Counted from the first letter of the stretch, positions 4,772 through 32,969 are shown. The stretch: 64,000 bases of DNA from an uncultured Alphaproteobacteria bacterium (GCA_944391485.1 CALXTQ010000020.1:1849-65848), one strand, 5' to 3'. Notes: generated by a model from the sequence alone, not told the origin. Numbers and translations: made by a program.

Positions 4772-5254
4772 TTAGATTTGTTTTAATTCTTCGATTAGTT
4801 CAAAGATTGTCATATCTGAGGCTTGAAGCTTGGAAACGGAAACCGGAGTTGGTTTATGTTCATCATAAATCGGGCTACCGGTGCGGCGGACAAATATCGC
4901 CGAGCTGATTTGTTTGCCGAAGGTCGGTGTATATTTGTTGGCAAAACCTTGTTCTTTGCTCCAATATCTTGATGTGTTGCTACCTGAAAGCGGACTTCCG
5001 GTGATGCAATAAAAATAGGTATCTTCTTGTTTCCATGGTGTATGTTGCCACAAAAGCAACAATTCCCCCAAACACAAAGAAAAGGTCGGAATATATAAGG
5101 CAAAAACCCCGCTGCCTTGAATATGAATGTTGTAATATTTGGGATTGGATAAGATTAAATCTTGATGTCGTTGCAATAAGTCTAAGTTATCAAACAATGC
5201 TTGCAACACTTCTTTATCAGGCGTGGCCGCCTGAACATAAAACTTAACTGTCAT
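4772..5254 (-). CDS. Hypothetical protein (160 aa), GC-richer than its surroundings
   Basis: Intact ORF with a local GC noticeably higher than the flanking AT-rich DNA. No recognisable motifs. It sits immediately upstream of an ankyrin gene on the same strand. Confidence 0.4.
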   Translation of the reverse strand: MTVKFYVQAATPDKEVLQALFDNLDLLQRHQDLILSNPKYYNIHIQGSGVFALYIPTFSLCLGELLLLWQHTPWKQEDTYFYCITGSPLSGSNTSRYWSKEQGFANKYTPTFGKQISSAIFVRRTGSPIYDEHKPTPVSVSKLQASDMTIFELIEELKQI

Positions 5255-5356: not shown

Positions 5357-5899
5357 TCAATTTTTGTAAAGCACCGCTCCGTTATCAAGCAATAGGTTGG
5401 CAACATCAAGCTCTATTCGCTCCAAGGCTAAGGTTAAGGCGGTTTCGCCTTGGATATTGAGCCAATTCACATCAACACCTTTATCTATCAACATTTGAAT
5501 AGTTTGTAATTTGGTATCATCTTCCATATTTTCGTTCAAAATAACGGACATAATAGCGTTATATCCGAATATATCGGTTCTATTGACTTCGCTTCCCTCG
5601 GCAATAAGAAAATCAAGAGGCTCTTTTTCCATACAGAAATAACAAGCCACCAAAAATAAACTAGCTCTGCGGCGATTGATTGAGGCATTTAGATTAAAAT
5701 TGTTGGATTTAATCAATTTTTTCAACTCACTGACCGAATTGATATCAATATTACCTTCGCTTTCAAAATTATACGGCGGATTAACCGGCGTATTCTTTAA
5801 TCTCTCTTCTATTTGTTTGATTTTTTCTTGGACTTCTGCCATTTCTTCAATGGTAATAAATTTAGAATAAGTTTTATCTTCGGGATTATACATTAACAT
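5357..5899 (-). CDS. Ankyrin-repeat protein (181 aa from Met-65 of the track ORF)
   Basis: The C-terminus has ANK repeats (GYNAIMSVILNENMEDDTKLQTIQMLIDKGVDVNWLNIQGETALTLALERIELDVANLLLDNGA). AAGGAG sits 6 nt upstream of ATG 5897-5899 (MLMYNPEDK). The upstream 64 codons of the track ORF look non-coding. Confidence 0.6.
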   Translation of the reverse strand: MLMYNPEDKTYSKFITIEEMAEVQEKIKQIEERLKNTPVNPPYNFESEGNIDINSVSELKKLIKSNNFNLNASINRRRASLFLVACYFCMEKEPLDFLIAEGSEVNRTDIFGYNAIMSVILNENMEDDTKLQTIQMLIDKGVDVNWLNIQGETALTLALERIELDVANLLLDNGAVLYKN

Positions 5900-6314
5900 T
5901 TTCACTCCTTGTCTGTTTTTCTTACAAGGATATTTATCGGAAATAAAACCTATTTTGTGATTTGGCAAAAAACAAACTTTGGCTAGATAAATACCTATGT
6001 AGCTGATGGCTATGTTTCGATTATAAACACGAATTGTCTGGGGTGAGGTGTGATGTGCGAGCATGACACCTCTTTTTGTTGGACAGCACACGGCGGACGG
6101 CTTTCTGATTTCTTTTTAATTCCCAGATGATTAAATCACACCTCAGAGGTTTGTTTTGTTTTATTTGAGGGCTATTTTAAGCTCAGAAAAAAGAAAGCTA
6201 TTTTAATTCTGGTTCTATTATAATAGTTCTTTTTTATATCTATTATAATACTATTATATGGGTTAAAATTTGCTCTAAAATCCTTGTCTGATAAGGAATT
6301 GAGCAATTTAATGA

Positions 6315-6974: not shown

Positions 6975-8150
6975 TTATATTCTGTCGCTATATGGAAGCG
7001 AATTGATATAATCTTCCATAAACTGCCAATCTGGAATATAGCCCTTGTCTGAATAAGTGTGATTATCATCTATAATTGGTTCACCTGTCTCATCTCTCTG
7101 GATTGGTAGTCGGAGAATATCTGACAAATACTTTTCTTCTGTAACTTTTCTTCCATAATCATATTTAAATCTATTTGCTAAAAGTATTGTTTGTAAAAAT
7201 AGATAAATTGACTTCGTTGCTATTTCTTCTGCTAATAATAATATTTTGGCAGAATCTCCAACAACACATCCTTCTGACTGAAAAGATACAAAACCAGCAG
7301 ACCCCGTCCTTGCAACAGTTAAGCACATTTTATCTGTTAATACATAACCTTTTTTTAGACAATATATTTTATCTATCTTTCCTAAGACACCGTTGTTTTC
7401 TTCACCACTTTGAACAGCGATAAGCAAGCCTTTGTTTTCTTCTATTTCTTCTTTTGTAATACCTTTGCCATTTAACATAGTAAACAAATCAGAAACTTTA
7501 AATTCCTCCCATTGTTCAATATTCAGCTCTTTATTTGTGTTATTTTTTATTTTTGTTGTAATTGGTTTATGATGTAAAGATTTAATATAATTTTCCATAA
7601 ATTCCCAATCAGGAATATATCCTTCGTTGGAATATCCCATAGATGTATTGATTATTGGCTTCTTTTCATCATCATATTGTATTGGTAGCTTGATGATAAT
7701 ATTTTTTGATTTATTCAAATCGTGTAATTTTCTTCCATAAGACCACTTGTAGCGTTCTCTGTTTATAATGGAACAAATAAACATAGCCCTAAAAAAATTC
7801 AATTCAAATTTGGGGTTACAAATGGTTTCATCGTGACTACTGGTAAATTTAATTGGCTGATAGTAAGCATTACAAACAGAACCATTATTAGTGATTGTTA
7901 TACAATTTCCTTCAAAGATTTTACCTTCTAGTGTATTATCATCTTGCCCTGTTTTATCGCTCAATTTAATACTTTCTATATCGCAATAATCGGTAACACC
8001 ATTATTTTCTGCCGTAGCCCCCAAAAATGGTATTGGATTATCAGATGGAAATGTTTCTATGGTTTCTGGTTTATTATTAAAATAGCCATTTTTCATATCA
8101 AATAAATCGGATAATTTAAATTCTTGCCATTCTTTTATATCAAGCCTCAT
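6975..8150 (-). CDS. hsdS: Type I restriction-modification specificity subunit HsdS
   Basis: 391 aa with two similar half-repeats (IKEWQEFKLSDLFDMKNG ... IEQWEEFKVSDLFTMLNGKG), typical of two-TRD S subunits. It overlaps the hsdM stop by 11 nt. Confidence 0.7.
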   Translation of the reverse strand: MRLDIKEWQEFKLSDLFDMKNGYFNNKPETIETFPSDNPIPFLGATAENNGVTDYCDIESIKLSDKTGQDDNTLEGKIFEGNCITITNNGSVCNAYYQPIKFTSSHDETICNPKFELNFFRAMFICSIINRERYKWSYGRKLHDLNKSKNIIIKLPIQYDDEKKPIINTSMGYSNEGYIPDWEFMENYIKSLHHKPITTKIKNNTNKELNIEQWEEFKVSDLFTMLNGKGITKEEIEENKGLLIAVQSGEENNGVLGKIDKIYCLKKGYVLTDKMCLTVARTGSAGFVSFQSEGCVVGDSAKILLLAEEIATKSIYLFLQTILLANRFKYDYGRKVTEEKYLSDILRLPIQRDETGEPIIDDNHTYSDKGYIPDWQFMEDYINSLPYSDRI

Positions 8151-10080
8151 AAATTTTTCCCTCCTTAACCAAAAAAGAGAGATAATTGTTTATTGTTCTT
8201 TGGAAATCAGCTTCTGTTAATTTTGTATAATCGGTTTTCATATATGCTTCGCACAACCACTCATCATCAGCAGTTACTTTTTCTACAGCAGACTTGCCAT
8301 CAACTGCGGCTTTTCTTTCAAACAAATCAAGCCACTCTGTTTCTATTTTCTTCCATTTAGAAATAGTAAAATTACCTTTATCATCTTTAGTAAATTGCTC
8401 AACCCTGCCTAAATTTTTCTTTTTTGTAAAACCATCATCTTTGCAATAACCAAAAAAAGTACTCCTTGTTGTACCATCAGATTTTACATGCGGCTGCCCA
8501 AGTGTAAACAACATACAGCAAGCACAGACAGAAGAACCTGGATAAAATATTTCTGCCGGCAATGAAAAAACGGCATCTAATGTATTATCTTCAAGCAAAG
8601 CTCTTTTTTCTTCGGTAATAAGAGAACTAGAACCAATAGCACAAGCCAGAGGAAGCAACACTGCTAATTTTACCTGTTTAGTGGACTTTCCATTTTTTGC
8701 TAACTCACTATTCATCTCTTTTATAACATCTGATATATAATGGATAAAGACCAAACCTTTAGTAGGATCTTCTTTTCCATCCTTAGCTTTTCCCCATTCT
8801 TTTTTATAAGAATTTGGAATGCTAATGGGTTTAGCATTATATGGAGGGTTCATTAAAATAATGTCAGGTTTTGCTTTTTTGATAAAGTCTTTATGGTCAA
8901 AACAACTTCCTAATTTGATATTAGAATTTCCATCACCGTGGATCAACATATTTGTAACAGAAAGTCCAAAAGCTTTTTCTTCAACCTCAATACCATATAT
9001 ATTTTCTTTTTTAACCTTTTGCTGTAGCTTTTTAGTTTCTTCTTCTGTGTGCCCTTTTCTGCAATCAGCCAGCTCTTTAACCATTGCCTGCACCAGAAAT
9101 GAAGCACTACCACATGTCGCATCAAGTACAACCTTTGTATGATCAACCTCTGTTAACCTACACATAAATTCCGTAATATGGTCTGGAGTAAAAGCTTGAT
9201 TCTTATCTGCCTTACCTGTATATTTATTAAAAGCAATAAAGAATAAATTCAAAATATCCTGGCCTTCTGAACTATTTACATCAATATATTTATAAATATC
9301 CATAAGGATAGTATCAATAATCTCGACCCAATCTTTTTGTTTGAGAGCTCTTACTTTTTGATCTTTTAATACGCTATTTTGTAATAATTCAATTTTTTTA
9401 CTTTTATTATCTGAACCATCTAATAGATTTGTAAGTGTATTTTCAATACCAGCTATAATTTCCTTTTCTGAACTTAAATTTAAATAATTTTCGACCTGCT
9501 TTCTTAAAGCCTCATCAATTTTTGTTGCGACAAACTTTTTCAATAAGTCTTTAACATATAACAAAACTGTTCCAACAAATTGACTCCTTAAAGTTTCTGC
9601 AATATCTTTTTTATGCAACAATTCATTGAGAGCATAAGTATTTTTTAATACTTTTTCACGATCATTTTGTTTATTCAGTTGAAATAATGAAGCATAGTGA
9701 TCAAACGTATCTAAAACAGTTTCTTCTTTTAAAAGATGTTCATCATCCATAGCTGATTTCCATACTTTTATTTTATCATCATTTGTATTCGCTAAAATAC
9801 AAACAATTTTTTTAGTTTTATTAACGGCTATTTCTTCTTCAAGATACTCTCTTAATTGGTCCTCATCTTTTTTTGTAAACTTTTGTTTGGTTTCCACTAA
9901 AACCACAACTTCTTCTTTTTTAAAACGAATATCTAATTTAAAATGTTTATATGGACGGCCTAATAATTTTTCTAATTTTTCCTTTGAACCCGCAGCTACA
10001 ACATAGCTATATTCGCCATCTTCTATATTTGGCACATGACATTCACTACCAACACAGCTTATAATTGAGAACCTATCCAT
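8140..10080 (-). CDS. hsdM: Type I R-M N6-adenine DNA methyltransferase HsdM
   Basis: Motif I VLDATCGSASFLVQA and motif IV IILMNPPYNAKP (gamma-class amino-MTase). The N-terminal domain is HsdM-like. The start is placed at MDRFSII (ATG 10078-10080) with GGAGG 5 nt upstream; the track start at 10092 is an alternative. Confidence 0.85.
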   Translation of the reverse strand: MDRFSIISCVGSECHVPNIEDGEYSYVVAAGSKEKLEKLLGRPYKHFKLDIRFKKEEVVVLVETKQKFTKKDEDQLREYLEEEIAVNKTKKIVCILANTNDDKIKVWKSAMDDEHLLKEETVLDTFDHYASLFQLNKQNDREKVLKNTYALNELLHKKDIAETLRSQFVGTVLLYVKDLLKKFVATKIDEALRKQVENYLNLSSEKEIIAGIENTLTNLLDGSDNKSKKIELLQNSVLKDQKVRALKQKDWVEIIDTILMDIYKYIDVNSSEGQDILNLFFIAFNKYTGKADKNQAFTPDHITEFMCRLTEVDHTKVVLDATCGSASFLVQAMVKELADCRKGHTEEETKKLQQKVKKENIYGIEVEEKAFGLSVTNMLIHGDGNSNIKLGSCFDHKDFIKKAKPDIILMNPPYNAKPISIPNSYKKEWGKAKDGKEDPTKGLVFIHYISDVIKEMNSELAKNGKSTKQVKLAVLLPLACAIGSSSLITEEKRALLEDNTLDAVFSLPAEIFYPGSSVCACCMLFTLGQPHVKSDGTTRSTFFGYCKDDGFTKKKNLGRVEQFTKDDKGNFTISKWKKIETEWLDLFERKAAVDGKSAVEKVTADDEWLCEAYMKTDYTKLTEADFQRTINNYLSFLVKEGKIYEA

Positions 10081-10188
10081 AAAAACCTCCAAAAATATTT
10101 TCTTATTGGAAAAGTTAATATAATATTCTTTATATTATCTTAAATTGTATAAAAATATTTTGATTTAAGCCTTTTTATAATATTTTCC

Positions 10189-13514: not shown

Positions 13515-14453
13515 CTATTCCATCATGATTTTCTGAACTTCGGCTTTTTGTTCTTGGGCGAACAAGGCATAGCCGGACGGGGTAAATGCTATTGGCCTTA
13601 ATTTTCCTTCTTTCATCCAATAACGAATGGTTGAAGTTGGAACATCGCACAACTTGGCAAATTTAGATATGGTAAGCAATGATTTATTAGGTTCTTGCTT
13701 ATGAACATCCAACAAATCAATCATCATTTTAAGCGAACGATTCAATGCCGAAAGCATAAATTTATAATAAGGCTCGCTATTCTCCCTTGTTTGATATGTT
13801 TCCAAAGCATTCAAATATCTCTTTCTATCAATAGGACGAATGATTATCGGAGCGTATCCGCTTTCAAGCAACATACTGTTAAGCAACAACCTTGCCGTAC
13901 GACCGTTACCATCAATAAATGGATGGATTGTTACCAAACGATAATGAGCTTCAATCGCTTTGAGCAGCATATCATCTTCTTTTTGCAACAACCAAGCAGA
14001 AAACTCTTTCATCAAATCAGGAACTTTAAGCGGGTTTGGAAGAATTGTTTGTGAACCGGATATTCTCACTCGGACACTCCGATAAAAACCGGCATTACCA
14101 TCATCAATGCCCGATAAAATAATTTTGTGTATCTGCAAGATATAGTTTTCATCAATTTTAACCGCCTTGGCCGCAGATGTTTGAATAAATTCAAAGGCTT
14201 TTGCATGGTTAATTGCTTCCAGATAATCATTGATAGGCTTTGCTCCGGAGGTAATTCTTTCTTCAATGGCCATCTCAGTTTCTTTTCGGGTTAAGGTATT
14301 ACCCTCAATCGCATTGGAAGTATAAGCAAGCTCTGTTTTCAGCCATTTATCAAGAACCTTTTGATTATCCTTATTTTTCAATAGCTTTTGCAAAATAGCT
14401 TTATTTTCTTCTATTTTTGATCTTATTTCCTGCATGACGGCCTCATACTTCAT
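13515..14453 (-). CDS. fic: Fic-family protein (AMPylase-type) with an N-terminal inhibitory-helix motif and a C-terminal HTH
   Basis: Canonical Fic motif HPFIDGNGRTARLL. N-terminal TSNAIEGNT matches the (S/T)xxxE(G/N) auto-inhibition motif. The C-terminus is PTSTIRYWMKEGKLRPIAFTPSGYALF (MerR/Xis-like HTH). Confidence 0.9.
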   Translation of the reverse strand: MKYEAVMQEIRSKIEENKAILQKLLKNKDNQKVLDKWLKTELAYTSNAIEGNTLTRKETEMAIEERITSGAKPINDYLEAINHAKAFEFIQTSAAKAVKIDENYILQIHKIILSGIDDGNAGFYRSVRVRISGSQTILPNPLKVPDLMKEFSAWLLQKEDDMLLKAIEAHYRLVTIHPFIDGNGRTARLLLNSMLLESGYAPIIIRPIDRKRYLNALETYQTRENSEPYYKFMLSALNRSLKMMIDLLDVHKQEPNKSLLTISKFAKLCDVPTSTIRYWMKEGKLRPIAFTPSGYALFAQEQKAEVQKIMME

Positions 14454-14888: not shown

Positions 14889-15929
14889 TTACAACACTTC
14901 CCAATAACCACCTTTAGCAGCTCCGATACGACGTATTTTGTTTTCTTTTTTCAAGGTTTCTAAATGCCATTTTATGCTATCCTCTGTCGTATTAAGGCGT
15001 TTGGCAAGTTCTTTTCTGCTGGCTTTGGGATCAATACGTAACACATCAAGAATTTTCTGGGTGGTTTTCTGGGTGGAATTTGGACTTTTCTGGGTGGTTT
15101 TCTGGGGGGAAATATCTTTAATTTGCATTTCTCTGTTATCCAACAGATTATTTTCTCCCAATAACAAATTACCAAAAAACTTATTCAAATACTCCATTGT
15201 ATATGGAATATCCTTTTCCAAATTTTGATAATTTGCTCTCACCAACGCATTTCTGAAATATTTCGAATGTTTTTCAAATAAATCATTATTTGTCTTAAAA
15301 CCAAGAGTATATAAATATTTAATTGTAAAAACTGCTGTGGCTCTGGTATTTCCTTCACCAAACGGATGTATCTGCCATATACCGGAAATAAATTTAGCTA
15401 AATGAGCAACTTTTTCAGCTTTACTTAATCCCATATAATTAAAGTTTTTCTCAGTTTGAAAATCATAATCCAACGTTTCTTTAAGACTATCTGAACGTCC
15501 GTATATAACCGTATCTCCATTCAAAATAGGTTCATCTTTGGTAATGTCATATGTTCGTAACTTTCCGGCGATTTCATCATCAAATATGCCACTAAATAAG
15601 GCTTTATGAATAGAAATATATTCCATCGGACTAAAAGAAAAAGTATGTGTGCTTAATATTTTAGCTATGCGAGCGGAAACTTCATCGGCTTCTTTCTCTC
15701 CTTGTTCTTTTAGCGTTATTGCCGGATTTATCTTATAATATTGTTTTACTTGCTCGGCAGCTTCATCAATAGATATCTTACCTTCAATATTATCTTTGGC
15801 AACTTCTATCAAATATTTTGACGGTAACAATCCGTCTACCTGTTGCAAACCAATGGCAACGCCCCAATTTTCTGCTTTTTTTTGCTTATCTGGTTCGCCT
15901 TGTTTTTTATATTCTTCAAAATCGCTCAT
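14889..15929 (-). CDS. Fic/Doc-family protein with a non-canonical motif and a C-terminal winged-helix domain
   Basis: Fic-like motif HPFGEGNTRATAV (HPFxEGN present; G->T and the second Arg absent compared with HPFx[DE]GNGRxxR). Low-complexity QKTTQKSPNSTQKTTQK repeat. C-terminal wHTH ASRKELAKRLNTTEDSIKWHLETLKKENKIRRIG. Confidence 0.8.
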   Translation of the reverse strand: MSDFEEYKKQGEPDKQKKAENWGVAIGLQQVDGLLPSKYLIEVAKDNIEGKISIDEAAEQVKQYYKINPAITLKEQGEKEADEVSARIAKILSTHTFSFSPMEYISIHKALFSGIFDDEIAGKLRTYDITKDEPILNGDTVIYGRSDSLKETLDYDFQTEKNFNYMGLSKAEKVAHLAKFISGIWQIHPFGEGNTRATAVFTIKYLYTLGFKTNNDLFEKHSKYFRNALVRANYQNLEKDIPYTMEYLNKFFGNLLLGENNLLDNREMQIKDISPQKTTQKSPNSTQKTTQKILDVLRIDPKASRKELAKRLNTTEDSIKWHLETLKKENKIRRIGAAKGGYWEVL

Positions 15930-16580: not shown

Positions 16581-17069
16581 TTAGTCAAAATTGAAGGAAC
16601 CCTTTACGTGCAAGCTTAAAATAGATGTATGCGTTTTTAGTAGATATTTTAACTTCTTTTCCAACTTACCGAGAAGTTGTAAACCTAATCTATATGCAAA
16701 TCTTGTGGTTTGCATTTGGTCATTGTAAAATTCTTTACTAGATGTTGCTAAAAAGCTATCTACACCATCTTTATTAATTCTTGCATCTTCTGCATAGCAC
16801 TTACATTGAATTGCCCAATACTCATTATCTGTTGTTAAAGCAACCAAATCTATACCTGTGTCTTTACCACTAAAATCTTTTCTATATGGAAAATCCTCCC
16901 AAAGCCAAATTTCTTTGAATTTTCCTGTATATTTAGGAGTAATCATCAAATATGATTTCATTAATCTTTCAAATCTTGTGCCTTTATCTCTTTCTGAAAA
17001 AGACTCATTTCTAAATTTATTTAAAACGTCAGTAAAAGATAAAATTGGTGCAGACATCAGAATCTCCAT
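16581..17069 (-). pseudogene. Truncated Mrr-type (PD-(D/E)xK, Mrr_cat-like) restriction endonuclease domain gene (162 aa; C-terminal partner domain missing)
   Basis: Motifs FERLMKSYL...GKDTGIDLVAL...YWAIQCKCY (D...QxK Mrr_cat signature). This domain is normally the N-terminus of a much larger helicase/restriction protein. Here the ORF stops and is followed by an odd GC-rich non-coding segment. Confidence 0.5.
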
Positions 17070-27075: not shown

Positions 27076-27483
27076 CTAAAACGAGGTCGTTTCAATTATC
27101 ATTTTTGAGCCCGGAAACCCGAATAGAAGTTGATCTTCGCAGGGACAAACCCTTCCAGTTCTTCCGCAGGTGATTAAACCTCTCAGTACAAAAGGCTTTT
27201 GGCTGTATTTCAGCCCCGCACCGTTATGATTGTTAAGGGTTTTCTGCTTTTGACATTGCTCCCACAGCTCTTGCGAAATCAGCGGCGGATAAACATGTTT
27301 AATAATTCCTCTTTTGGTTTTCATCTCACCATAATGAAAGGGATTGTCCAATATATAATAGATGCTGGAATTGACATGCCACCGGCGGGTGTCGGGTTTT
27401 ATAATTGCGTATTTAAGGGAATAGTGAATTTTGATGAAAGTATTGTTCCGGAAAAGAGCGTGTTGGAATATTTTACCATGCAA
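27076..27483 (-). pseudogene. 3' fragment of a large serine recombinase gene (recombinase domain plus zinc-ribbon region only)
   Basis: LDNPFHYGEM...PPLISQELWEQCQ...FVLRGLITCGRTGRV resembles the recombinase/Zn-ribbon region of large serine recombinases. The N-terminal catalytic resolvase domain is missing, and a perfect 15-bp inverted repeat (27492-27537) lies just upstream. Confidence 0.5.
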
Positions 27484-27713: not shown

Positions 27714-29114
27714 ATGGAATTTATCGGCAGAACGAAAGAACTTAGTGATTTAGAGCAAGAATATAATAATAAACATTCCTTTGTTGTTATATATGGTCGC
27801 AGACGTATCGGAAAAACTGCTTTAATTCAAGAATTCATTAAAGGCAAGCCTGCCCTATACTTCTTGGCGACAGAAGAATCCGAACCGCAGAGTATGAAGC
27901 GGTTTGCTTCGAGTTTATCGCAATTTGCCAATCAGGAATTTATTGCCAAGGCTAATTTTGATGATTGGATTGAGCTCTTCAAACTGTTTGCGGCTGTTCC
28001 AAGCAAAAATACAAAAGTTCTTGTTCTTGACGAATTTCAGTACATGGTCAACACAAATCCCGCTTTCACTTCAATCTTTCAAAAGGCATGGGATGAAGTT
28101 TTATCAAAGCAAGATATTATGGTCATTATCTGCGGTTCATACATTAATATGATGATGAAACAGGTTTTGGCCGAAAACAGTCCCTTGTATGGTCGCCGTA
28201 CATCTCAAATCCGATTGGCGCCGCTTCCTTTTTTTGATATCAGACAACATTATCACTATAAGTCTTTTTCCGATGTGGTTGAGCTTTATTCCGTGACCGG
28301 CGGCGTTCCGAAATATTTGGAATTTTTTGATAACAAAAATTCTTTAATGGATAATATCTCCCGTGTCATTCTTAATAAAAACGGCTTTTTGTACGAAGAA
28401 CCGGCGTTTTTACTCAATAAGGAAGTTAAAGAACCGGTAAACTATTATTCGGTTATGAAAGCAATAGCTCAAAACAATCACAAACTATCAGAGATAGCCT
28501 CGGCAATGTCCACGGAGGGCAACAAATTAAGTCCCTATCTGGAAACTTTGCAGGGGTTATACTTATTGGAAAAACGTGTTCCGGTAACCGAAAAAAAACC
28601 GGAAAAAAGCCGGAAAGGATTATATTTTATCCGAGATATATTTATCCGCTTTTGGTTTATGTTTGTCTTTCCTTATAAAGGAGAGCTTGAGCTGGATAAT
28701 CTGAATTTTGTACAAGATAAGCTGAAATCCAATTTTGTTGATAATCACGCGGCATTTGTTTATGAAGAAATCTGCCGCAACATATTTGCAGAACTATGCA
28801 AAAGTAAAGAAATCGATTTTGTTCCTTCTCGTATCGGCGCATATTGGAACAAAAATGAAGAGATAGATTTGGTTGCCATTGATGAAAGCAACCGGCGTAT
28901 TTTTGCGGCTGAATGTAAATATTACAAAGATGACAAGCCGATTGACGTTAATGTTTACGCAAAGCTGGCGGAAAAATGCCAAGTTAACGATTTCAAAGGA
29001 TATGATTTAACCTACGGCATATTCTCTAAAAGCGGCTTTACAAAACATTTGAAAGACATCGCGAAAGAAAACAAAAAATTTATTTTAATAGATGAATGTG
29101 ACATAGTAAAGTAA
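27714..29114 (+). CDS. AAA ATPase of the archaeal-ATPase (ATPase_2) + DUF234 type
   Basis: Walker A VVIYGRRRIGKTALIQEF, Walker B KVLVLDEFQY, and a ~200-aa C-terminal domain typical of DUF234 fusions. Confidence 0.7.
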   Translation: MEFIGRTKELSDLEQEYNNKHSFVVIYGRRRIGKTALIQEFIKGKPALYFLATEESEPQSMKRFASSLSQFANQEFIAKANFDDWIELFKLFAAVPSKNTKVLVLDEFQYMVNTNPAFTSIFQKAWDEVLSKQDIMVIICGSYINMMMKQVLAENSPLYGRRTSQIRLAPLPFFDIRQHYHYKSFSDVVELYSVTGGVPKYLEFFDNKNSLMDNISRVILNKNGFLYEEPAFLLNKEVKEPVNYYSVMKAIAQNNHKLSEIASAMSTEGNKLSPYLETLQGLYLLEKRVPVTEKKPEKSRKGLYFIRDIFIRFWFMFVFPYKGELELDNLNFVQDKLKSNFVDNHAAFVYEEICRNIFAELCKSKEIDFVPSRIGAYWNKNEEIDLVAIDESNRRIFAAECKYYKDDKPIDVNVYAKLAEKCQVNDFKGYDLTYGIFSKSGFTKHLKDIAKENKKFILIDECDIVK

Positions 29115-29137: not shown

Positions 29138-30250
29138 TTATCTTAATCTTTGGAGGTTGATGATGAAAAAATTTTGGATATTTGGCGTGATTGCTTTGAT
29201 GACAACATCTTGTGTTTTGTTTAATCAAAGTGAAGAAGAAAAATTTGTTAATCCGGTCTTTTATGAAAAAATGATTTCTGCTTCGCATTCAAATTTTGAA
29301 GTGCAGTTAACACCAACCAGTATTTATATGTTTTCCAGTGAAAGCTATAAGTATAATTATACTTGTAAACTCATCAATAACCAAATGGATACGGTTAGTT
29401 TGGAATGTTTTAAGTATAACTACAAAAACGAAAAAGAAGAAACACAAGTTTTCACCTATACTCTTAAACCCTGCACTAAAGAAAACCTTTGCTTAGATGA
29501 AGGTGGATGGCTGGTTTATCAAAAGATTAAACCATATAAATATTTTGATGAAACACTTACCTATATCGTTCCGTCAAAATCTAAAAATACTCCTAAAGAC
29601 AAATTTGTAAACCCGTTGTTTTATAAAAAACTATCGCCAATATCCCGTGGTTCTAGGCCAACCTTTTTGATGCCAACTTCTGTTACGACTATAGATTTAT
29701 ACGGAAAAGAAGATATTGAAAAATGTAAAATGCTTGAAAATACCCCTATGTTTGTAACTCTTGAATGTTCTTATTACAGTGATTTTTTAAAAAGAATGAG
29801 AAATTATGTTGTTCGTTACGTGTTACAAGGATGTGATGAGAAAAAAGAATATTGCTTTGGTGGTGAATGGTTCGTATTGGAAAATGCATCAGGCAGTGCT
29901 ATAGGAACATTTGTTATAGATAAAAAAGATATGGGGCAGTAAGAACTGCCCCTTTATCGTTACCAAGATTTGATATTTCGGATTTGTTGTTCTGCCCAAT
30001 TATTCCGTTTTAGGTCAACATCTTTACGATGCACATTATAAATAATACCTTCATCGCCAAACAAATTTTTCTCCACAATGGCCTTTCTGAGCTTGGGCCA
30101 ATTTTCTTGAGATACATTTCCTGTATTGAATTTTATATCCAATAACACATTTTGCAATTCCGGTGGATATGAAGCAAAATCAGTAAACTCCTTCTGAAGA
30201 TATTTTATATCTTCTGTTATGTGGTTCCGGAGCAATTTATCTATTTCATC
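29138..30250. repeat. Tandem duplication, unit 1 (lipoprotein gene plus the 3' end of a convergent lysozyme-like gene)
   Basis: About 95% identical to 30310-31422, offset 1172 bp. Boundaries are judged from where identity breaks down on each side. Confidence 0.75.
29157..29942 (+). CDS. Two-domain lipoprotein, copy 1 (candidate periplasmic immunity protein)
   Basis: GGAGG then ATGATGAAA. Lipobox LMTTSC. Internal duplication of a ~115-aa domain (FVNPVFYEKM... / FVNPLFYKKL...) with several conserved Cys. Confidence 0.7.
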   Translation: MMMKKFWIFGVIALMTTSCVLFNQSEEEKFVNPVFYEKMISASHSNFEVQLTPTSIYMFSSESYKYNYTCKLINNQMDTVSLECFKYNYKNEKEETQVFTYTLKPCTKENLCLDEGGWLVYQKIKPYKYFDETLTYIVPSKSKNTPKDKFVNPLFYKKLSPISRGSRPTFLMPTSVTTIDLYGKEDIEKCKMLENTPMFVTLECSYYSDFLKRMRNYVVRYVLQGCDEKKEYCFGGEWFVLENASGSAIGTFVIDKKDMGQ

Positions 30251-30289
30251 AGGAGATACCCTCAATTTTTTATTTAACCATATTTTCAA
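29960..30289 (-). pseudogene. Orphan C-terminal fragment (109 aa) of the lysozyme-like gene
   Basis: Its C-terminal ~95 aa (HITEDIKYLQKEF..DFASYPPELQNVLLDIKFNTGNVSQENWPKLRKAI.EKNLFGDEGIIYNVHRKDVDLKRNNW.EQQIRNIKSW) are almost identical to the C-terminus of the 31132-32097 product. The N-terminus is a different, short sequence. Confidence 0.6.
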
Positions 30290-30309
30290 TTTTCCATATT
30301 ATACTCAAA

Positions 30310-31422
30310 ATATCTTAATCTTTGGAGGTTGATGATGAAAAAATTTTGGATATTTGGTGTGATTGCTTTGATGACAACATCTTGTGTTTTGTTTAATCAA
30401 AGTGAAGAAGAAAAATTTGTTAATCCGGTCTTTTATGAAAAAATGATTTCTGCTTCGCATTCAAATTTTGAAGTACAGTTAACACCAACCAGTATTTATA
30501 TGTTTTCCAGTGAAAGCTCTAAGTATAATTATACTTGCAAACTCATCAATAACCAAATGGATACGGTTAGTTTGGAATGTTTTAAGTATAACTACAAAAA
30601 CGAAAAAGAAGAAACACAAGTTTTCACATACACGCTCAAACCCTGCACTAAAGAAAACCTTTGCTTAGATGAAGGGGGATGGCTGGTTTATCAAAAGATT
30701 AAGCCATACAAATATTTTGATGAAACGCTTACTTATATCATTCCTTCAAAATCTGAAAATGCTCCTAAAGACAAATTTGTAAATCCGTTGTTTTATAAAA
30801 AATTATCGCCAATATCCCGAGGTTCAAGGCCAACCTTTTTGACGCCAACCTCCGTTACGACTATAGATTTATATGGGAAAGAGGATATTGGAAAATGTAA
30901 AATGCTTGAAAATACACCGATGTTTGTGACATTAGATTGTTCATTTTATGAAGAAGAAACTAAAGAAACATATGGGCTTGTTGTTCGTTATGTTTTACAA
31001 GGATGTGATGAAAAAACTAAATATTGTTACGGGGGAGCTTGGCGTGTATTAGAAAATGAATCAGGTAGTGCTATAGGAACATTTGTTATAGATAAAAAAG
31101 ATACGGGGCAGTAAGAACTGCCCCTTTATCGTTACCAAGATTTGATATTTCGGATTTGTTGTTCTACCCAATTATTCCGTTTTAGGTCAACATCTTTACG
31201 ATGCACATTATAGATAATACCTTCATCGCCAAACAAATTTTTCTCGGCAATAGCCTTTCTGAGTTTTGGCCAATTTTCTTGAGATACATTTCCTGTATTG
31301 AATTTTATATCCAATAACACATTTTGCAATTCCGGTGGATATGAAGCAAAATCTGGAAACTCCTTCTGAAGATATTTTATATCTTCTGTTATGTGTTTCC
31401 GGAGCAATCTATCTGTTTCACC
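30310..31422. repeat. Tandem duplication, unit 2
   Basis: See 29138-30250. Confidence 0.75.
30329..31114 (+). CDS. Two-domain lipoprotein, copy 2
   Basis: About 93% identical to copy 1 at the protein level, with a divergent patch near the C-terminus (DCSFYEEETKETYGLV versus ECSYYSDFLKRMRNYV). Confidence 0.7.
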   Translation: MMMKKFWIFGVIALMTTSCVLFNQSEEEKFVNPVFYEKMISASHSNFEVQLTPTSIYMFSSESSKYNYTCKLINNQMDTVSLECFKYNYKNEKEETQVFTYTLKPCTKENLCLDEGGWLVYQKIKPYKYFDETLTYIIPSKSENAPKDKFVNPLFYKKLSPISRGSRPTFLTPTSVTTIDLYGKEDIGKCKMLENTPMFVTLDCSFYEEETKETYGLVVRYVLQGCDEKTKYCYGGAWRVLENESGSAIGTFVIDKKDTGQ

Positions 31423-32097
31423 TTTAGCTAACCTAAATTGACTATAGTTAATATATGAACTTGCTTTTTTATTGTTCTTTATAATATTACCTTTAGAATC
31501 TTTGTTTTGGCGACCTTGATTAATTTCATTTTGAAATATATTAAACGCGGCTTGTTTTTCTGCTTCCGTCGGTGGACGTCCGTTTACCTCCCAATTTACT
31601 TTATTAAAAGTATTCCAATCGTCAACATTGGCACCGGCACCCGTTGTCTTATTCCATGTTGTGTCAATATAGACATAGTCTAAAGGTTTTTCCTTATCTT
31701 TTATTACTGGAAGCATCCGCTCACTCAACTCCTTATCGGAAAACTTACCAGATGGAATATTTGCATCATTTACCACATTCCCTTTTGTATTTTGAGCGAT
31801 TTTGTAAGAAGCGGAATTATTTCCGATTGGTTTGGGTGATAAAGCAGAGCTTACTTTATTTCCTTCTTTCGCCACATTTTTAGCTAATGCTTGCGATAGG
31901 TAAGAACGAGCCGTGGTTGCTGGTTTAGATTGAAGGTGAGAAAAATCATTTTCCAACAAATGACGAGAGTTAAATTTATAGTTTTTATCTGTATCTTGAC
32001 GGGAAGAAAGCTCTCTTGAAAGCAGAGTTTGAGATTGTTTCTTTTTCAGCTCTTCTTCGGGGTCGTCTTGAATTATGTATTGAATTAAATTAGACAT
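31132..32097 (-). CDS. Protein with a divergent phage-type lysozyme-like (GH24/T4L-superfamily) C-terminal domain and a low-complexity N-terminal region; candidate secreted effector/toxin
   Basis: Starts at MSNLIQYI (ATG 32095-32097, AAGGA upstream). The C-terminal segment ITEDIKYLQKEF...LLDIKFNTGNVSQENW...L.W resembles the P22/T4 lysozyme ITAEKSSELLKEDL...LIFNIGKSAFAGS...LLW. GETDRLL aligns with the catalytic-Glu region EGERLKAY, but the Asp/Thr beta-hairpin appears to be missing. Confidence 0.45.
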   Translation of the reverse strand: MSNLIQYIIQDDPEEELKKKQSQTLLSRELSSRQDTDKNYKFNSRHLLENDFSHLQSKPATTARSYLSQALAKNVAKEGNKVSSALSPKPIGNNSASYKIAQNTKGNVVNDANIPSGKFSDKELSERMLPVIKDKEKPLDYVYIDTTWNKTTGAGANVDDWNTFNKVNWEVNGRPPTEAEKQAAFNIFQNEINQGRQNKDSKGNIIKNNKKASSYINYSQFRLAKGETDRLLRKHITEDIKYLQKEFPDFASYPPELQNVLLDIKFNTGNVSQENWPKLRKAIAEKNLFGDEGIIYNVHRKDVDLKRNNWVEQQIRNIKSW

Positions 32098-32360
32098 GCG
32101 TTTTTCCTTTACAAATTTTTTTAAAACAAAAAATCCGAAGAACTTAATCTTCGGATTTTGGATACACTTATCCCAAGTGATAAATCTCATATAACAAAAT
32201 TAAATACAATTTGCAAGACACAATAAAATACATAAACAACTTTTAGAAAATTTTCTTACACTCCTCTAATAACAAAAGTTATTAGCAGAATAAAATCTCC
32301 GTTAATCCTTCGTTAAAAATGCTTTTTATTTTATCATAACTTTTTAAAATTATAATAAAT

Positions 32361-32969
32361 ACAAAAAAGTCGGTTATCACATATATCAGAAAAAGTACGG
32401 ATAAATAATCACTTGAACATCAGGAATACGAGAACGAATTCGCAAAGAAAAATGCTCTTAAAATAGACAGATGGATTGAAGAAAGCATTTCCAGCCGCAA
32501 GGAGCTGAAAAAAAGAAAACTGGGAGAACTGCTGGAAGAGCTGCAAGAGGGAGATTGTCTCATATGCAGTGAAATTTCCCGCCTTTCCAGATCCGTTGGA
32601 GAAACTTTTTTAATTTTGCAAACCCTGATTTCTAAAAAATGTCAGGTTATTACTATTAAAGAAAACTATCATTTAGGCAACGATTTACAATCGCAGGTTC
32701 TGGCTTTCGCTTTCGGTTTATCTTCCCAAATTGAGAGAGATTTGATATCTCAAAGAACAAAATGTTCGTTGGACGCCAAAAAAGCAGCGGGCGTTAAACT
32801 CGGCAGGCCGATAGGCGCGGAAAGCAAAAAACTGAAACTATCCAAAAATACTAAAAAAATAAGAAATTTACTGGATAAAAAAGTGCCGAAAGCACAAATT
32901 GCCCGAATTATGGGAGTTCAGAAAATAACGTTACGAAGATTTATCAAACGTATGGGATGGTATGACTGA
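32361..32969 (+). pseudogene. Small serine recombinase (resolvase/invertase family) pseudogene
   Basis: The frame reads ..SVITYIRKSTDK*SLEHQEYENEFAKKNALKIDRWIEE...LLEELQEGDCLICSEISRLSRSVGETFLILQTL...GRPIG...HTH. The catalytic region YIRKST is present, but the conserved Gln codon is TAA (32406-32408) and no ATG start remains. The downstream part is intact to the stop at 32969. Confidence 0.7.

Follow-up and report, generated by a model that had tools for sequence, protein, structure and literature searches.

A probable polymorphic toxin-immunity locus in gut Alphaproteobacteria, with a predicted T4-lysozyme-like toxin, a two-barrel lipoprotein partner and an orphan toxin module

Bacteriocins of the colicin M family carry a TonB box in an unstructured N-terminus and have their immunity gene located downstream on the opposite strand (PMC5821083), while in pesticin the TonB box lies within a disordered N-terminus, the activity domain is T4 lysozyme (T4L)-like, and immunity is provided by a periplasmic protein, Pim (PMC3390615). 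Here we analyzed a stretch of 64,000 nucleotides from an uncultured Alphaproteobacteria bacterium (GCA_944391485.1 CALXTQ010000020.1:1849-65848; this whole stretch is referred to as the window) that contains a gene for a lysozyme-like protein of 321 amino acids (aa), a convergent gene for a lipoprotein of 261 aa, and a second, tandem copy of this lipoprotein gene next to a truncated 3' end of the lysozyme-like gene. Overall, this is probably a polymorphic antibacterial toxin-immunity locus of gut Alphaproteobacteria that carries one orphan module. To our knowledge, uncultured gut Alphaproteobacteria have no described weapons. A convergent toxin/immunity layout is also found for pesticin. The fold, catalytic residues, modularity, linkage and co-variation, orphan and leader described below are computational results, from which we infer the enzymatic activity of the toxin, its inhibition by the lipoprotein, the control by antitermination and the delivery route.

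The full-length toxin gene and its parts are located as follows:

31132-32097, minus strand: full-length toxin gene, 321 aa
31750-32097, minus strand: disordered N-terminal module, residues 1-116, carrying the invariant MSNLIQYIIQDDPEE peptide
31135-31749, minus strand: GH24/T4-lysozyme-like domain, residues 117-321
31690-31692 (E136), 31663-31665 (D145) and 31645-31647 (T151), minus strand: codons of the predicted catalytic residues

A toxin model built with AlphaFold2 from an alignment of 48 sequences shows residues 1-116 as disordered, with a predicted local distance difference test score (pLDDT) below 50, and residues 117-321 as globular, with a pLDDT of about 96. When this model was compared with the Protein Data Bank (PDB) using Foldseek, all 50 of the 50 best matches were T4L, T4L fusion constructs or pesticin. 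We are confident, on the strength of this model, that the C-terminal domain has the two-lobed T4-lysozyme fold, as anticipated by an original prediction made from the sequence alone. That prediction also described the N-terminal half of the protein as low-complexity, and the N-terminus is indeed low-complexity and disordered, but it spans residues 1-116, which is about a third of the protein and not half. A further claim, that the Asp/Thr hairpin of the active site is missing, does not hold. Specifically, E136 and D145 are invariant among the 48 sequences and T151 is at least 90% conserved (T151 is invariant in A4), and a profile-versus-PDB search together with hhalign places E136/D145/T151 on T4L E11/D20/T26 with identical spacing (E-8-D-5-T), the toxin segment aligned on the T4L active site being 'mEepkdyiYiDttwnkTvGaGa'. 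Pesticin differs in this respect, since its residues are E178/T201/D207 while the window toxin keeps the T4L spacing.

The sequence E-values of these toxin-T4L alignments are weak (0.02-0.06), so the catalytic assignment rests on the fold match and on residue invariance, and a search of the single toxin sequence against PDB sequences gave no meaningful match. A profile search of 1.84 billion representatives recovered 4,060 relatives of the toxin C-terminal domain. Among the top 144 of these relatives, 51 match Phage_lysozyme (PF00959) and 28 match Pesticin (PF16754) at E <= 0.001; because these Pfam matches come from relatives and not from the window protein, the link to the GH24 family is transitive only. 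Judged from the modeled fold, the 321-aa protein would be a muramidase-type toxin.

The partner of this toxin is present in two copies that diverge in one patch:

30329-31114, plus strand: lipoprotein copy 2, 261 aa, with a lipobox (…LMTTSC) and patch allele 'FYEEETKETYG'; beside the full-length toxin gene
29157-29942, plus strand: lipoprotein copy 1, 261 aa, 90% identical to copy 2, with patch allele 'YYSDFLKRMRN'; beside the orphan toxin fragment
29744-29880 (in copy 2, 30916-31052), plus strand: divergent patch of the lipoprotein copies, 64% identity versus 95.5% elsewhere

The lipoprotein has a signal peptide and a lipobox, and some of its homologues have a non-lipoprotein signal instead, which indicates that export is the constant feature. 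It is composed of two repeats that each start with (E/D)KFVNPxFY and that have conserved cysteines, and its AlphaFold2 model (pLDDT 82.5) shows two tandem eight-stranded lipocalin-like β-barrels. The modeled barrel fold resembles that of BtaiB, a solved immunity protein of a type VI secretion system (T6SS), and profile searches against Pfam, NCBIfam, PHROGs and the PDB identified no sequence relative. Literature on RF32 gut Alphaproteobacteria and on BtaeB/BtaiB provided nothing usable.

A homologue of the lipoprotein gene is present, convergent and about 17 bp downstream, in all ten of the loci that have this toxin C-terminal domain, while three loci with a C-terminal domain that is only 28% identical have a 147-aa single-barrel partner instead. 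When this C-terminal domain occurs behind a second type of N-terminal module (type 2), a 262-aa convergent gene follows as a candidate partner. Pairwise identities of the toxins and of the lipoproteins are correlated (r = 0.88 over 36 comparisons, which are not independent), and toxins and lipoproteins split into the same two clades. This strict linkage and co-variation with the toxin strongly suggests that the lipoprotein is its cognate immunity protein, a role that had been proposed from the sequence of this locus. The convergent gene order was at the same time called unusual, which is not the case, as it is present in every locus of this pair and is normal in colicin M-type bacteriocins (PMC5821083). 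The earlier observation that the two lipoproteins differ mainly in one short patch holds as well, and the patch alleles 'YYSDFLKRMRN' and 'FYEEETKETYG' constitute a two-allele cassette that recurs across many genomes. Translation of lipoprotein copy 1 likely starts at ATG 29160 or 29163, after a GGAGG.

We also find that the toxin belongs to a modular family. The N-terminal peptide MSNLIQYIIQDDPEE is joined to at least seven different C-terminal domains, mostly cell-wall-degrading, each of which has its own partner. Specifically, toxin residues 1-112 (76-93% identical) also precede GH108, PG_binding_3, VgrG3-like/GH46 and SAA-like domains, and residues 1-57 also precede SLT-type and unknown C-termini. 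All identifiable C-terminal domains of the family target the cell wall or membrane, and sister toxins bear VgrG3-like_C and Tlde1_dom domains. The lysozyme domain (54-80% identical) is in turn preceded, in other proteins, by at least two further N-terminal modules, 'M.FFKKYTTPFGY…YGVDHSGFSTRDELEYQFAR…' and '…GQSxWYYxDPR…IDVP…PNP'. The residues that are invariant in the N-terminal module are M1, S2, N3, L4, I5, Y7, I8, Q10 and P13, and their codons vary synonymously (ATGTCTAATTTA versus ATGAGTAACCTT), which shows that it is the amino-acid sequence of the peptide that is conserved. No match to this module was obtained in Pfam, NCBIfam or PHROG, and the alternative N-terminal modules likewise have none above threshold in these collections.

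The hosts of the family are uncultured human-gut Alphaproteobacteria known from metagenome-assembled genomes (MAGs), and a genome scan located three loci in each of several MAGs. Contigs from human-gut samples are 98% identical to the window. A locus has up to four toxin genes, each then followed by its type-specific small gene (clusters c2, c3, c4, c8, c13, c17, c26, c36 and others), and the toxin cassettes form islets of about 30% GC within genomes of 40-50% GC. Short toxins of 90-190 aa that start with MGNLIQYIAQEDPEK form a sister group and occur in tandem arrays of two to three, each with its own copy of the leader (metagenome stretches L052-L111).

As GH24 is the classic endolysin fold, the 321-aa protein could also be a housekeeping or prophage autolysin or endolysin that is paired with a proteinaceous lysozyme inhibitor and is not aimed at other cells. 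β-barrel lipoprotein lysozyme inhibitors such as MliC/PliC do exist, and related lysins (GH108 and SLT-like) are found in the phage contigs. However, neither a signal peptide nor a SAR domain is present in the toxin, it has no holin partner, its gene is not within a prophage, and an endolysin offers no role for a disordered N-terminus of 116 residues with an invariant tip. The polymorphic architecture, the orphans, the type-specific partners and the location in low-GC mobile islets are moreover the signature of a conflict system, and we consider a hydrolase of this kind to be highly improbable. Its more specific form, a prophage endolysin, which the original prediction had named as an outcome that would refute it, was rejected since the window is free of phage genes and the phage databases returned no match. 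A tblastn search with the toxin matched none of 50,697 phages and 72,556 plasmids. Distant relatives of the pair do occur in phages, however, as described further below.

The tandem arrangement, including the orphan C-terminus, consists of the following parts:

29139-30250: repeat copy 1
30311-31422: repeat copy 2
30251-30310: unique junction between the repeat units, 60 bp, A/T-rich, also conserved in locus L046
29960-30250, minus strand: orphan toxin C-terminal fragment, the last ~97 codons (toxin residues ~225-321), delimited by the identity profile and a protein alignment

An identity comparison at a period of 1,172 bp shows that a unit of 1,112 bp is present twice in tandem. In each unit, a 261-aa lipoprotein open reading frame (ORF) on the plus strand is separated by a 17-bp spacer from the 3' end of the convergent ORF, and only the right-hand copy of the latter extends into a complete gene (31132-32097, minus strand). 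Along the toxin strand the order is thus full toxin, immunity 2, truncated toxin 3' end and immunity 1. The identity of about 95% that was initially assigned to the two units applies outside of the 137-bp patch at 29744-29880, where it is 95.5%, but not overall, where it is 91.6%; within the patch it is 64%. Locus L046, an independent assembly that is 95.7% identical, contains the toxin, the lipoprotein, the junction and then 80 bp of the orphan, and two further assemblies that are 98% identical to the window end within the repeated lipoprotein gene. These three assemblies indicate that the duplicated layout is real and common to strains and is not an assembly artefact, and the identity profile together with L046 confirms the duplication with an orphan C-terminus as the original prediction had it. 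The 60-bp junction at 30251-30310 contains a promoter-like TTAACC-17-TATTAT that, from its sequence, could be a candidate driver of lipoprotein copy 2.

The orphan fragment corresponds to T4L from about residue 57 to the end, and it lacks both the N-terminal module and the lobe with the catalytic E/D/T residues; it is therefore no enzyme on its own. A TTG-initiated ORF of the fragment reaches 30289, and its match to Pfam Pesticin is below threshold (16.5 bits for a cut-off of 25.8, E 0.0085). A second orphan of this C-terminal type, in which only the N-motif is missing, is present in L114, and related loci also contain N-terminal stubs (L013, L022 and L037) as well as split genes, which indicates turnover of these loci. 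The appearance of the tandem second copy is that of a local duplication or of an older copy that has been displaced. Such an orphan cassette would preserve another immunity allele, with a different version of the recombining patch, and would provide homology for further exchange.

This arrangement resembles the orphans of contact-dependent growth inhibition (CDI, cdiA-CT/cdiI) and Rhs systems, in that a full toxin and its immunity gene are followed by a 5'-truncated toxin C-terminus and a second immunity gene, with the breakpoint located inside the toxin gene. The differences are that the orphan of this locus departs little from the resident C-terminus (95.5% DNA identity) and is not of another toxin type, that the breakpoint falls within the catalytic domain so that the orphan has no active site, and that the genes are convergent. 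An orphan toxin C-terminus with an immunity gene had been taken early on as a hallmark of polymorphic toxin loci, and this is borne out by a family in which one N-terminal module is found on many C-terminal domains.

Given a toxin that would act on peptidoglycan and a predicted periplasmic lipoprotein partner, we considered whether the family is cargo of a T6SS or of another contact-dependent secretion system, in which case the N-terminal peptide would be a loading marker for a VgrG, PAAR, Hcp or adaptor protein encoded elsewhere. The modeled resemblance of the immunity fold to BtaiB is consistent with this, as are the VgrG3-like_C and Tlde1_dom domains of sister toxins. With its predicted muramidase and putative lipoprotein immunity, the locus parallels the T6SS pairs Tge/Tgi, VgrG3/TsiV3 and Vibrio fluvialis TssI2/TsiI2, the latter having a pesticin domain, in which a muramidase that acts in the periplasm is matched by an immunity protein that is periplasmic or a lipoprotein, and T6SS spikes with a pesticin domain exist (PMC9620997). 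Relative to these pairs the window locus has no link to T6SS genes and no VgrG or PAAR fusion, and it differs in its disordered N-terminus, its convergent gene pair with its own terminator and its dedicated leader. The presence of many paralogues per genome that share one N-terminal marker and are scattered away from any apparatus is reminiscent of MIX/FIX effectors. However, the 64-kb window and the annotated flank genes of related loci showed no gene for a T6SS core component, a VgrG, an Hcp, a PAAR or an adaptor, and none of the 144 distant relatives carries PAAR, VgrG, Rhs or LXG, so the Tge/Tgi-type framing that was originally given to this locus was not sustained. In addition, about a third of the protein is disordered and low-complexity, which is atypical for T6SS cargo, and a convergent layout with a bidirectional terminator is atypical for effector-immunity operons. 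We view delivery by a T6SS or a similar system as unlikely.

The toxin gene is preceded by a conserved leader, and each lipoprotein gene ends in a terminator:

32103-32248, minus strand: conserved 5' cassette of the toxin gene, ~150 nt
AAAAGTTGTTGAT, minus strand: upstream box of the leader
32211-32216, minus strand: -35 element, TTGCAA in the window and TTGAAA in the family
~32188-32196, minus strand: extended -10 element, TGTTATATG in the window and TGnTATAnn in the family
32162-32181, minus strand: hairpin P1, 8 bp
32130-32159, minus strand: intrinsic-terminator-like hairpin with a U-tract, from a terminator scan
~9 nt before the ATG and 25-35 nt past the terminator hairpin, minus strand: ribosome-binding site (RBS) AAGGA
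31105-31124, both strands: bidirectional terminator hairpin GGGGCAG-TAAGAA-CTGCCCC, overlapping the lipoprotein stop codon in the 17-bp junction
29933-29952, both strands: bidirectional terminator hairpin of copy 1, identical to that at 31105-31124

A terminator scan of the region gave seven sites where 1.9 are expected. The leader is conserved before all 45 distinct type-1 toxin genes (loci L001-L046), irrespective of their C-terminus or species, with 58 nhmmer matches to the cassette in the first loci. In 61 further metagenomic stretches every full leader precedes either a toxin starting with MSNLI or MGNLI or a small MPKK… gene, and neither in the first loci nor in these stretches was the leader found before any machinery gene. 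Comparison of the leader with Rfam gave only sub-threshold chance matches. Both hairpins are recovered by RNAalifold. The base of the P1 stem covaries, with A-U exchanged for G-C in nine sequences and U-A for C-G in five, and U·G wobbles are present in nine. This tolerance of U·G wobbles favours P1 as an RNA pairing, and the alternative that it is a DNA operator was judged less likely for the same reason. Variants of the leader terminator preserve pairing by wobbles or double changes, and three loci have a different hairpin at the position of the terminator. Toxins with the type-2 N-terminal module (L112 and L113) are preceded by a cassette that is unrelated but built in the same way, its terminator-like hairpins being two in tandem, and this cassette is identical before a T4L-type and a Tlde1-type toxin.

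The gap between the terminator and the RBS is too short for a promoter. The simplest reading of the leader sequence is that it would act as an attenuator, with the toxin transcribed only once termination is overcome. As every family member has the same promoter-hairpin-terminator leader, its conservation suggests a toxin regulon under antitermination control. The design resembles PR'-tR' of phage lambda, which is subject to Q antitermination and controls Shiga toxin genes, in having a strong conserved promoter, a short structured leader and an intrinsic terminator before the toxin; it differs in that the leader is repeated before every chromosomal toxin gene and in that no Q-like gene or site was identified. 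The leader also bears on the start of the toxin. A 352-aa ORF was rejected as the gene since its ATG (32190) lies inside the conserved -10 element, which places the start at 32097, and all homologues start with MSNLIQ.

The leader or its promoter half is also located before a gene for an 88-aa lysine-rich protein (MPKKTDKTKYVGDC…) that is followed by c21, a protein with four transmembrane (TM) segments (L019 2222-2640; L037 8721-8871, minus strand), and before a gene for c20, an 85-aa protein with two to three TM segments (c20 and c21 are found in L017, L031 and L038). The 88-aa/c21 and c20 genes are probably further small toxin/immunity pairs of the same regulon. Membrane proteins encoded near toxins are c15, c20 and c21, which are multi-pass, and c8, which is single-pass, none of them with a Pfam match; these four were dropped as delivery genes, being more likely immunities. 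An autotransporter (c18), a Zeta-toxin-like protein (c12) and a tyrosine recombinase (c14) were checked as recurrent neighbours and were also dropped as parts of a delivery system.

Relatives of the toxin/barrel pair are also present in phages. Two IMG/VR contigs, L047 and L050, are genuine phages with major head, tail and terminase matches, and in their structural module both carry the same C-terminal domain as the window toxin (35-40% identical, E ~1e-46) together with a convergent single-barrel lipoprotein homologue (30-36% identical). In L050 (6968-8461) an N-motif of type 3, a MuF motif and the lysozyme domain are combined in a gene that lies directly after the terminase gene, and in L047 (5410-9047) the pair is located between tail and tail-fibre genes, which we read as the position of podovirus internal or ejection proteins. 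The type-3 N-motif is common to these phage proteins and to chromosomal toxins with the C-terminal type of the window, and 17 of the 144 relatives carry Phage_Mu_F. From these sequence comparisons, an evolutionary link of the toxin system to phage MuF-type head proteins appears clear. Phage L047 also encodes a YkuD/Tlde1-like protein with a 'WYYxDPR…IDVP…PNP' N-motif and, after it, three small paralogous membrane proteins.

Polymorphic toxins of the MuF type in temperate phages were reportedly described by Jamet et al. in 2017. Phage toxins of this type, which include those of L047 and L050, resemble the window toxin in their toxin domain, their barrel partner and in having variable C-termini behind a conserved N-terminal module. 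They differ from it in that the window protein has no MuF motif and lies outside of a prophage, and in that its N-terminal module is not found in viral collections. These relatives bring up delivery by a phage-derived particle, where the N-terminal peptide would target the toxin to a capsid or to a phage-like particle from a prophage, gene transfer agent or tailocin encoded elsewhere, an antiterminator would switch the toxins on together with late genes, and the lipoprotein would shield lysogens and kin by blocking the incoming lysozyme (superinfection exclusion or immunity). The resemblance of the leader to the Q-dependent PR'-tR' unit of lambda, under which Stx toxins also stand, fits with such a route. 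Conversely, the N-terminal module of the window (MSNLIQYI) is not present in 2.9 million viral contigs nor in 50,697 phage genomes, scans of IMG/VR for type-1 and type-2 N-terminal modules returned none, and there are no matches to phage structural genes in the bacterial loci or the window. The window protein is also without the MuF motif of its phage relatives, long low-complexity linkers are not known in packaged proteins, and up to four toxins per locus with several loci per genome are hard to fit as capsid cargo. With these points considered, a particle-based route seems rather improbable.

In a related and equally doubtful scenario, the toxins would descend from phage MuF or ejection proteins and belong to a new, antitermination-switched delivery system with at least three invariant N-peptide types and dedicated leaders. 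If so, the whole chromosomal arsenal would be induced together, and its toxins would either enter a phage-derived particle in trans or be exported and imported by a route that is neither a T6SS nor that of classical colicins.

The delivery route that we tentatively prefer, while regarding it as possible and short of probable, is a release and receptor-mediated import like that of colicin M and pesticin, with the disordered N-terminus acting by analogy as a translocation domain. The bacteriocin-like traits of the toxin are its disordered N-terminus, a short invariant tip, the lack of a signal peptide and the position of the putative immunity gene, which lies downstream and on the other strand; this gene codes for an exported protein, so that this feature of group B bacteriocins is present. 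In the mechanism that we propose the toxin, since it has no signal peptide, would be harmless in the cytoplasm of its producer and would act only in the periplasm of a neighbour, where it would cut peptidoglycan. The invariant first ~15 residues of the disordered N-terminal module would serve as the delivery handle of the family, the lipoprotein would be exported to the periplasm to bind and block the toxin, and the conserved leader would gate toxin expression, probably by antitermination.

The likeness to the colicin M group (Cmi/PmiA) extends to peptidoglycan-directed activity, predicted for the window toxin, polymorphism, an unstructured N-terminus with a short motif, downstream immunity on the opposite strand, and the recruitment of unrelated immunity families by different members (PMC5821083). 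The catalytic fold of colicin M is however of the lipid II phosphatase type versus GH24 here, and colicin M has receptor-binding domains. Pesticin of Yersinia pestis also has a folded receptor-binding domain that the window toxin lacks, and while Pim serves as its immunity protein, the putative immunity protein of the window has two modeled barrels, is a lipoprotein and gave no sequence match in solved structures, Pfam or NCBIfam. Loci of the window type are furthermore chromosomal multi-copy arrays in Alphaproteobacteria.

Several points weigh against our interpretation of the locus as a bacteriocin-like toxin-immunity system. The AlphaFold2 model contains no folded receptor-binding domain between residue 1 and the lysozyme domain, neither a lysis/release gene nor an SOS box was recognised by eye upstream of the toxin, and the N-terminal motif is, by analogy, only a putative TonB box. 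Many paralogues that share an N-terminal marker are more typical of MIX/FIX T6SS effectors, and a leader design like that of phage late-gene control, as well as the phage MuF-type relatives of the toxin/barrel pair, point to a particle-based route. For the toxin, searches of Pfam, NCBIfam and PHROG with the window protein gave nothing above threshold; for the immunity protein, no correlation of the patch allele (DFLKRM versus EETKETY) with the toxin variant is visible in ten pairs.

Interbacterial toxins influence strain persistence in the gut, and this locus opens up a large unannotated family, whose toxin domain has 4,060 cluster representatives. A polymorphic toxin is in itself of an already known kind. 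Here a GH24 polymorphic toxin is combined with a new immunity family of lipocalin-like barrels, at least three new putative N-terminal delivery modules and the conserved terminator-containing leader, which, located before every toxin gene, predicts a single antitermination switch for the arsenal. A toxin/inhibitor pair that is common to phage head proteins and chromosomal arsenals also bears on how phage ejection enzymes may become weapons, and a lysozyme-inhibitor pair could serve as an engineered lysin with its antidote.

Regarding the genomic surroundings, the GC content of the window changes sharply, from about 30% up to ~33 kb to about 50% beyond, with the toxin locus at the inner edge of the low-GC part. 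This part is a mosaic of defence and accessory genes, with genes for the S and M subunits of a type I restriction-modification system (6975-10092), two Fic proteins (13515-14453 and 14889-15929), an Mrr-like nuclease (16581-17069), AAA ATPases and several ankyrin-repeat proteins (5357-6091, 23225-24382 and 24397-26250). Odd accessory cargo of this island are a class I lysyl-tRNA synthetase (20992-22635, plus strand) and a 618-aa protein in which a tRNA-synthetase-like domain of class II (D/K/N-type) is fused to thymidylate kinase (17171-19027, minus strand). The genes at 4772-5254 and 5357-6091 recur beside toxin cassettes in L015, L018 and L037.

An ATPase_2/DUF234 gene of 466 aa (27714-29114, plus strand) ends 25 bp before repeat copy 1. 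As the repeat adds no more than 18 nt in front of the start codon of lipoprotein copy 1, the lipoprotein gene and the ATPase gene may share a transcript. Serine recombinase fragments flank the ATPase gene and the toxin locus at 27076-27483 (minus strand) and 32616-32969 (plus strand); they comprise a Recombinase domain and a resolvase C-terminal part plus a helix-turn-helix. Small tyrosine recombinases (c14) are located near toxin arrays in L015, L018, L030, L034, L037 and L038, and the presence of recombinases near cassettes hints at site-specific mobility.

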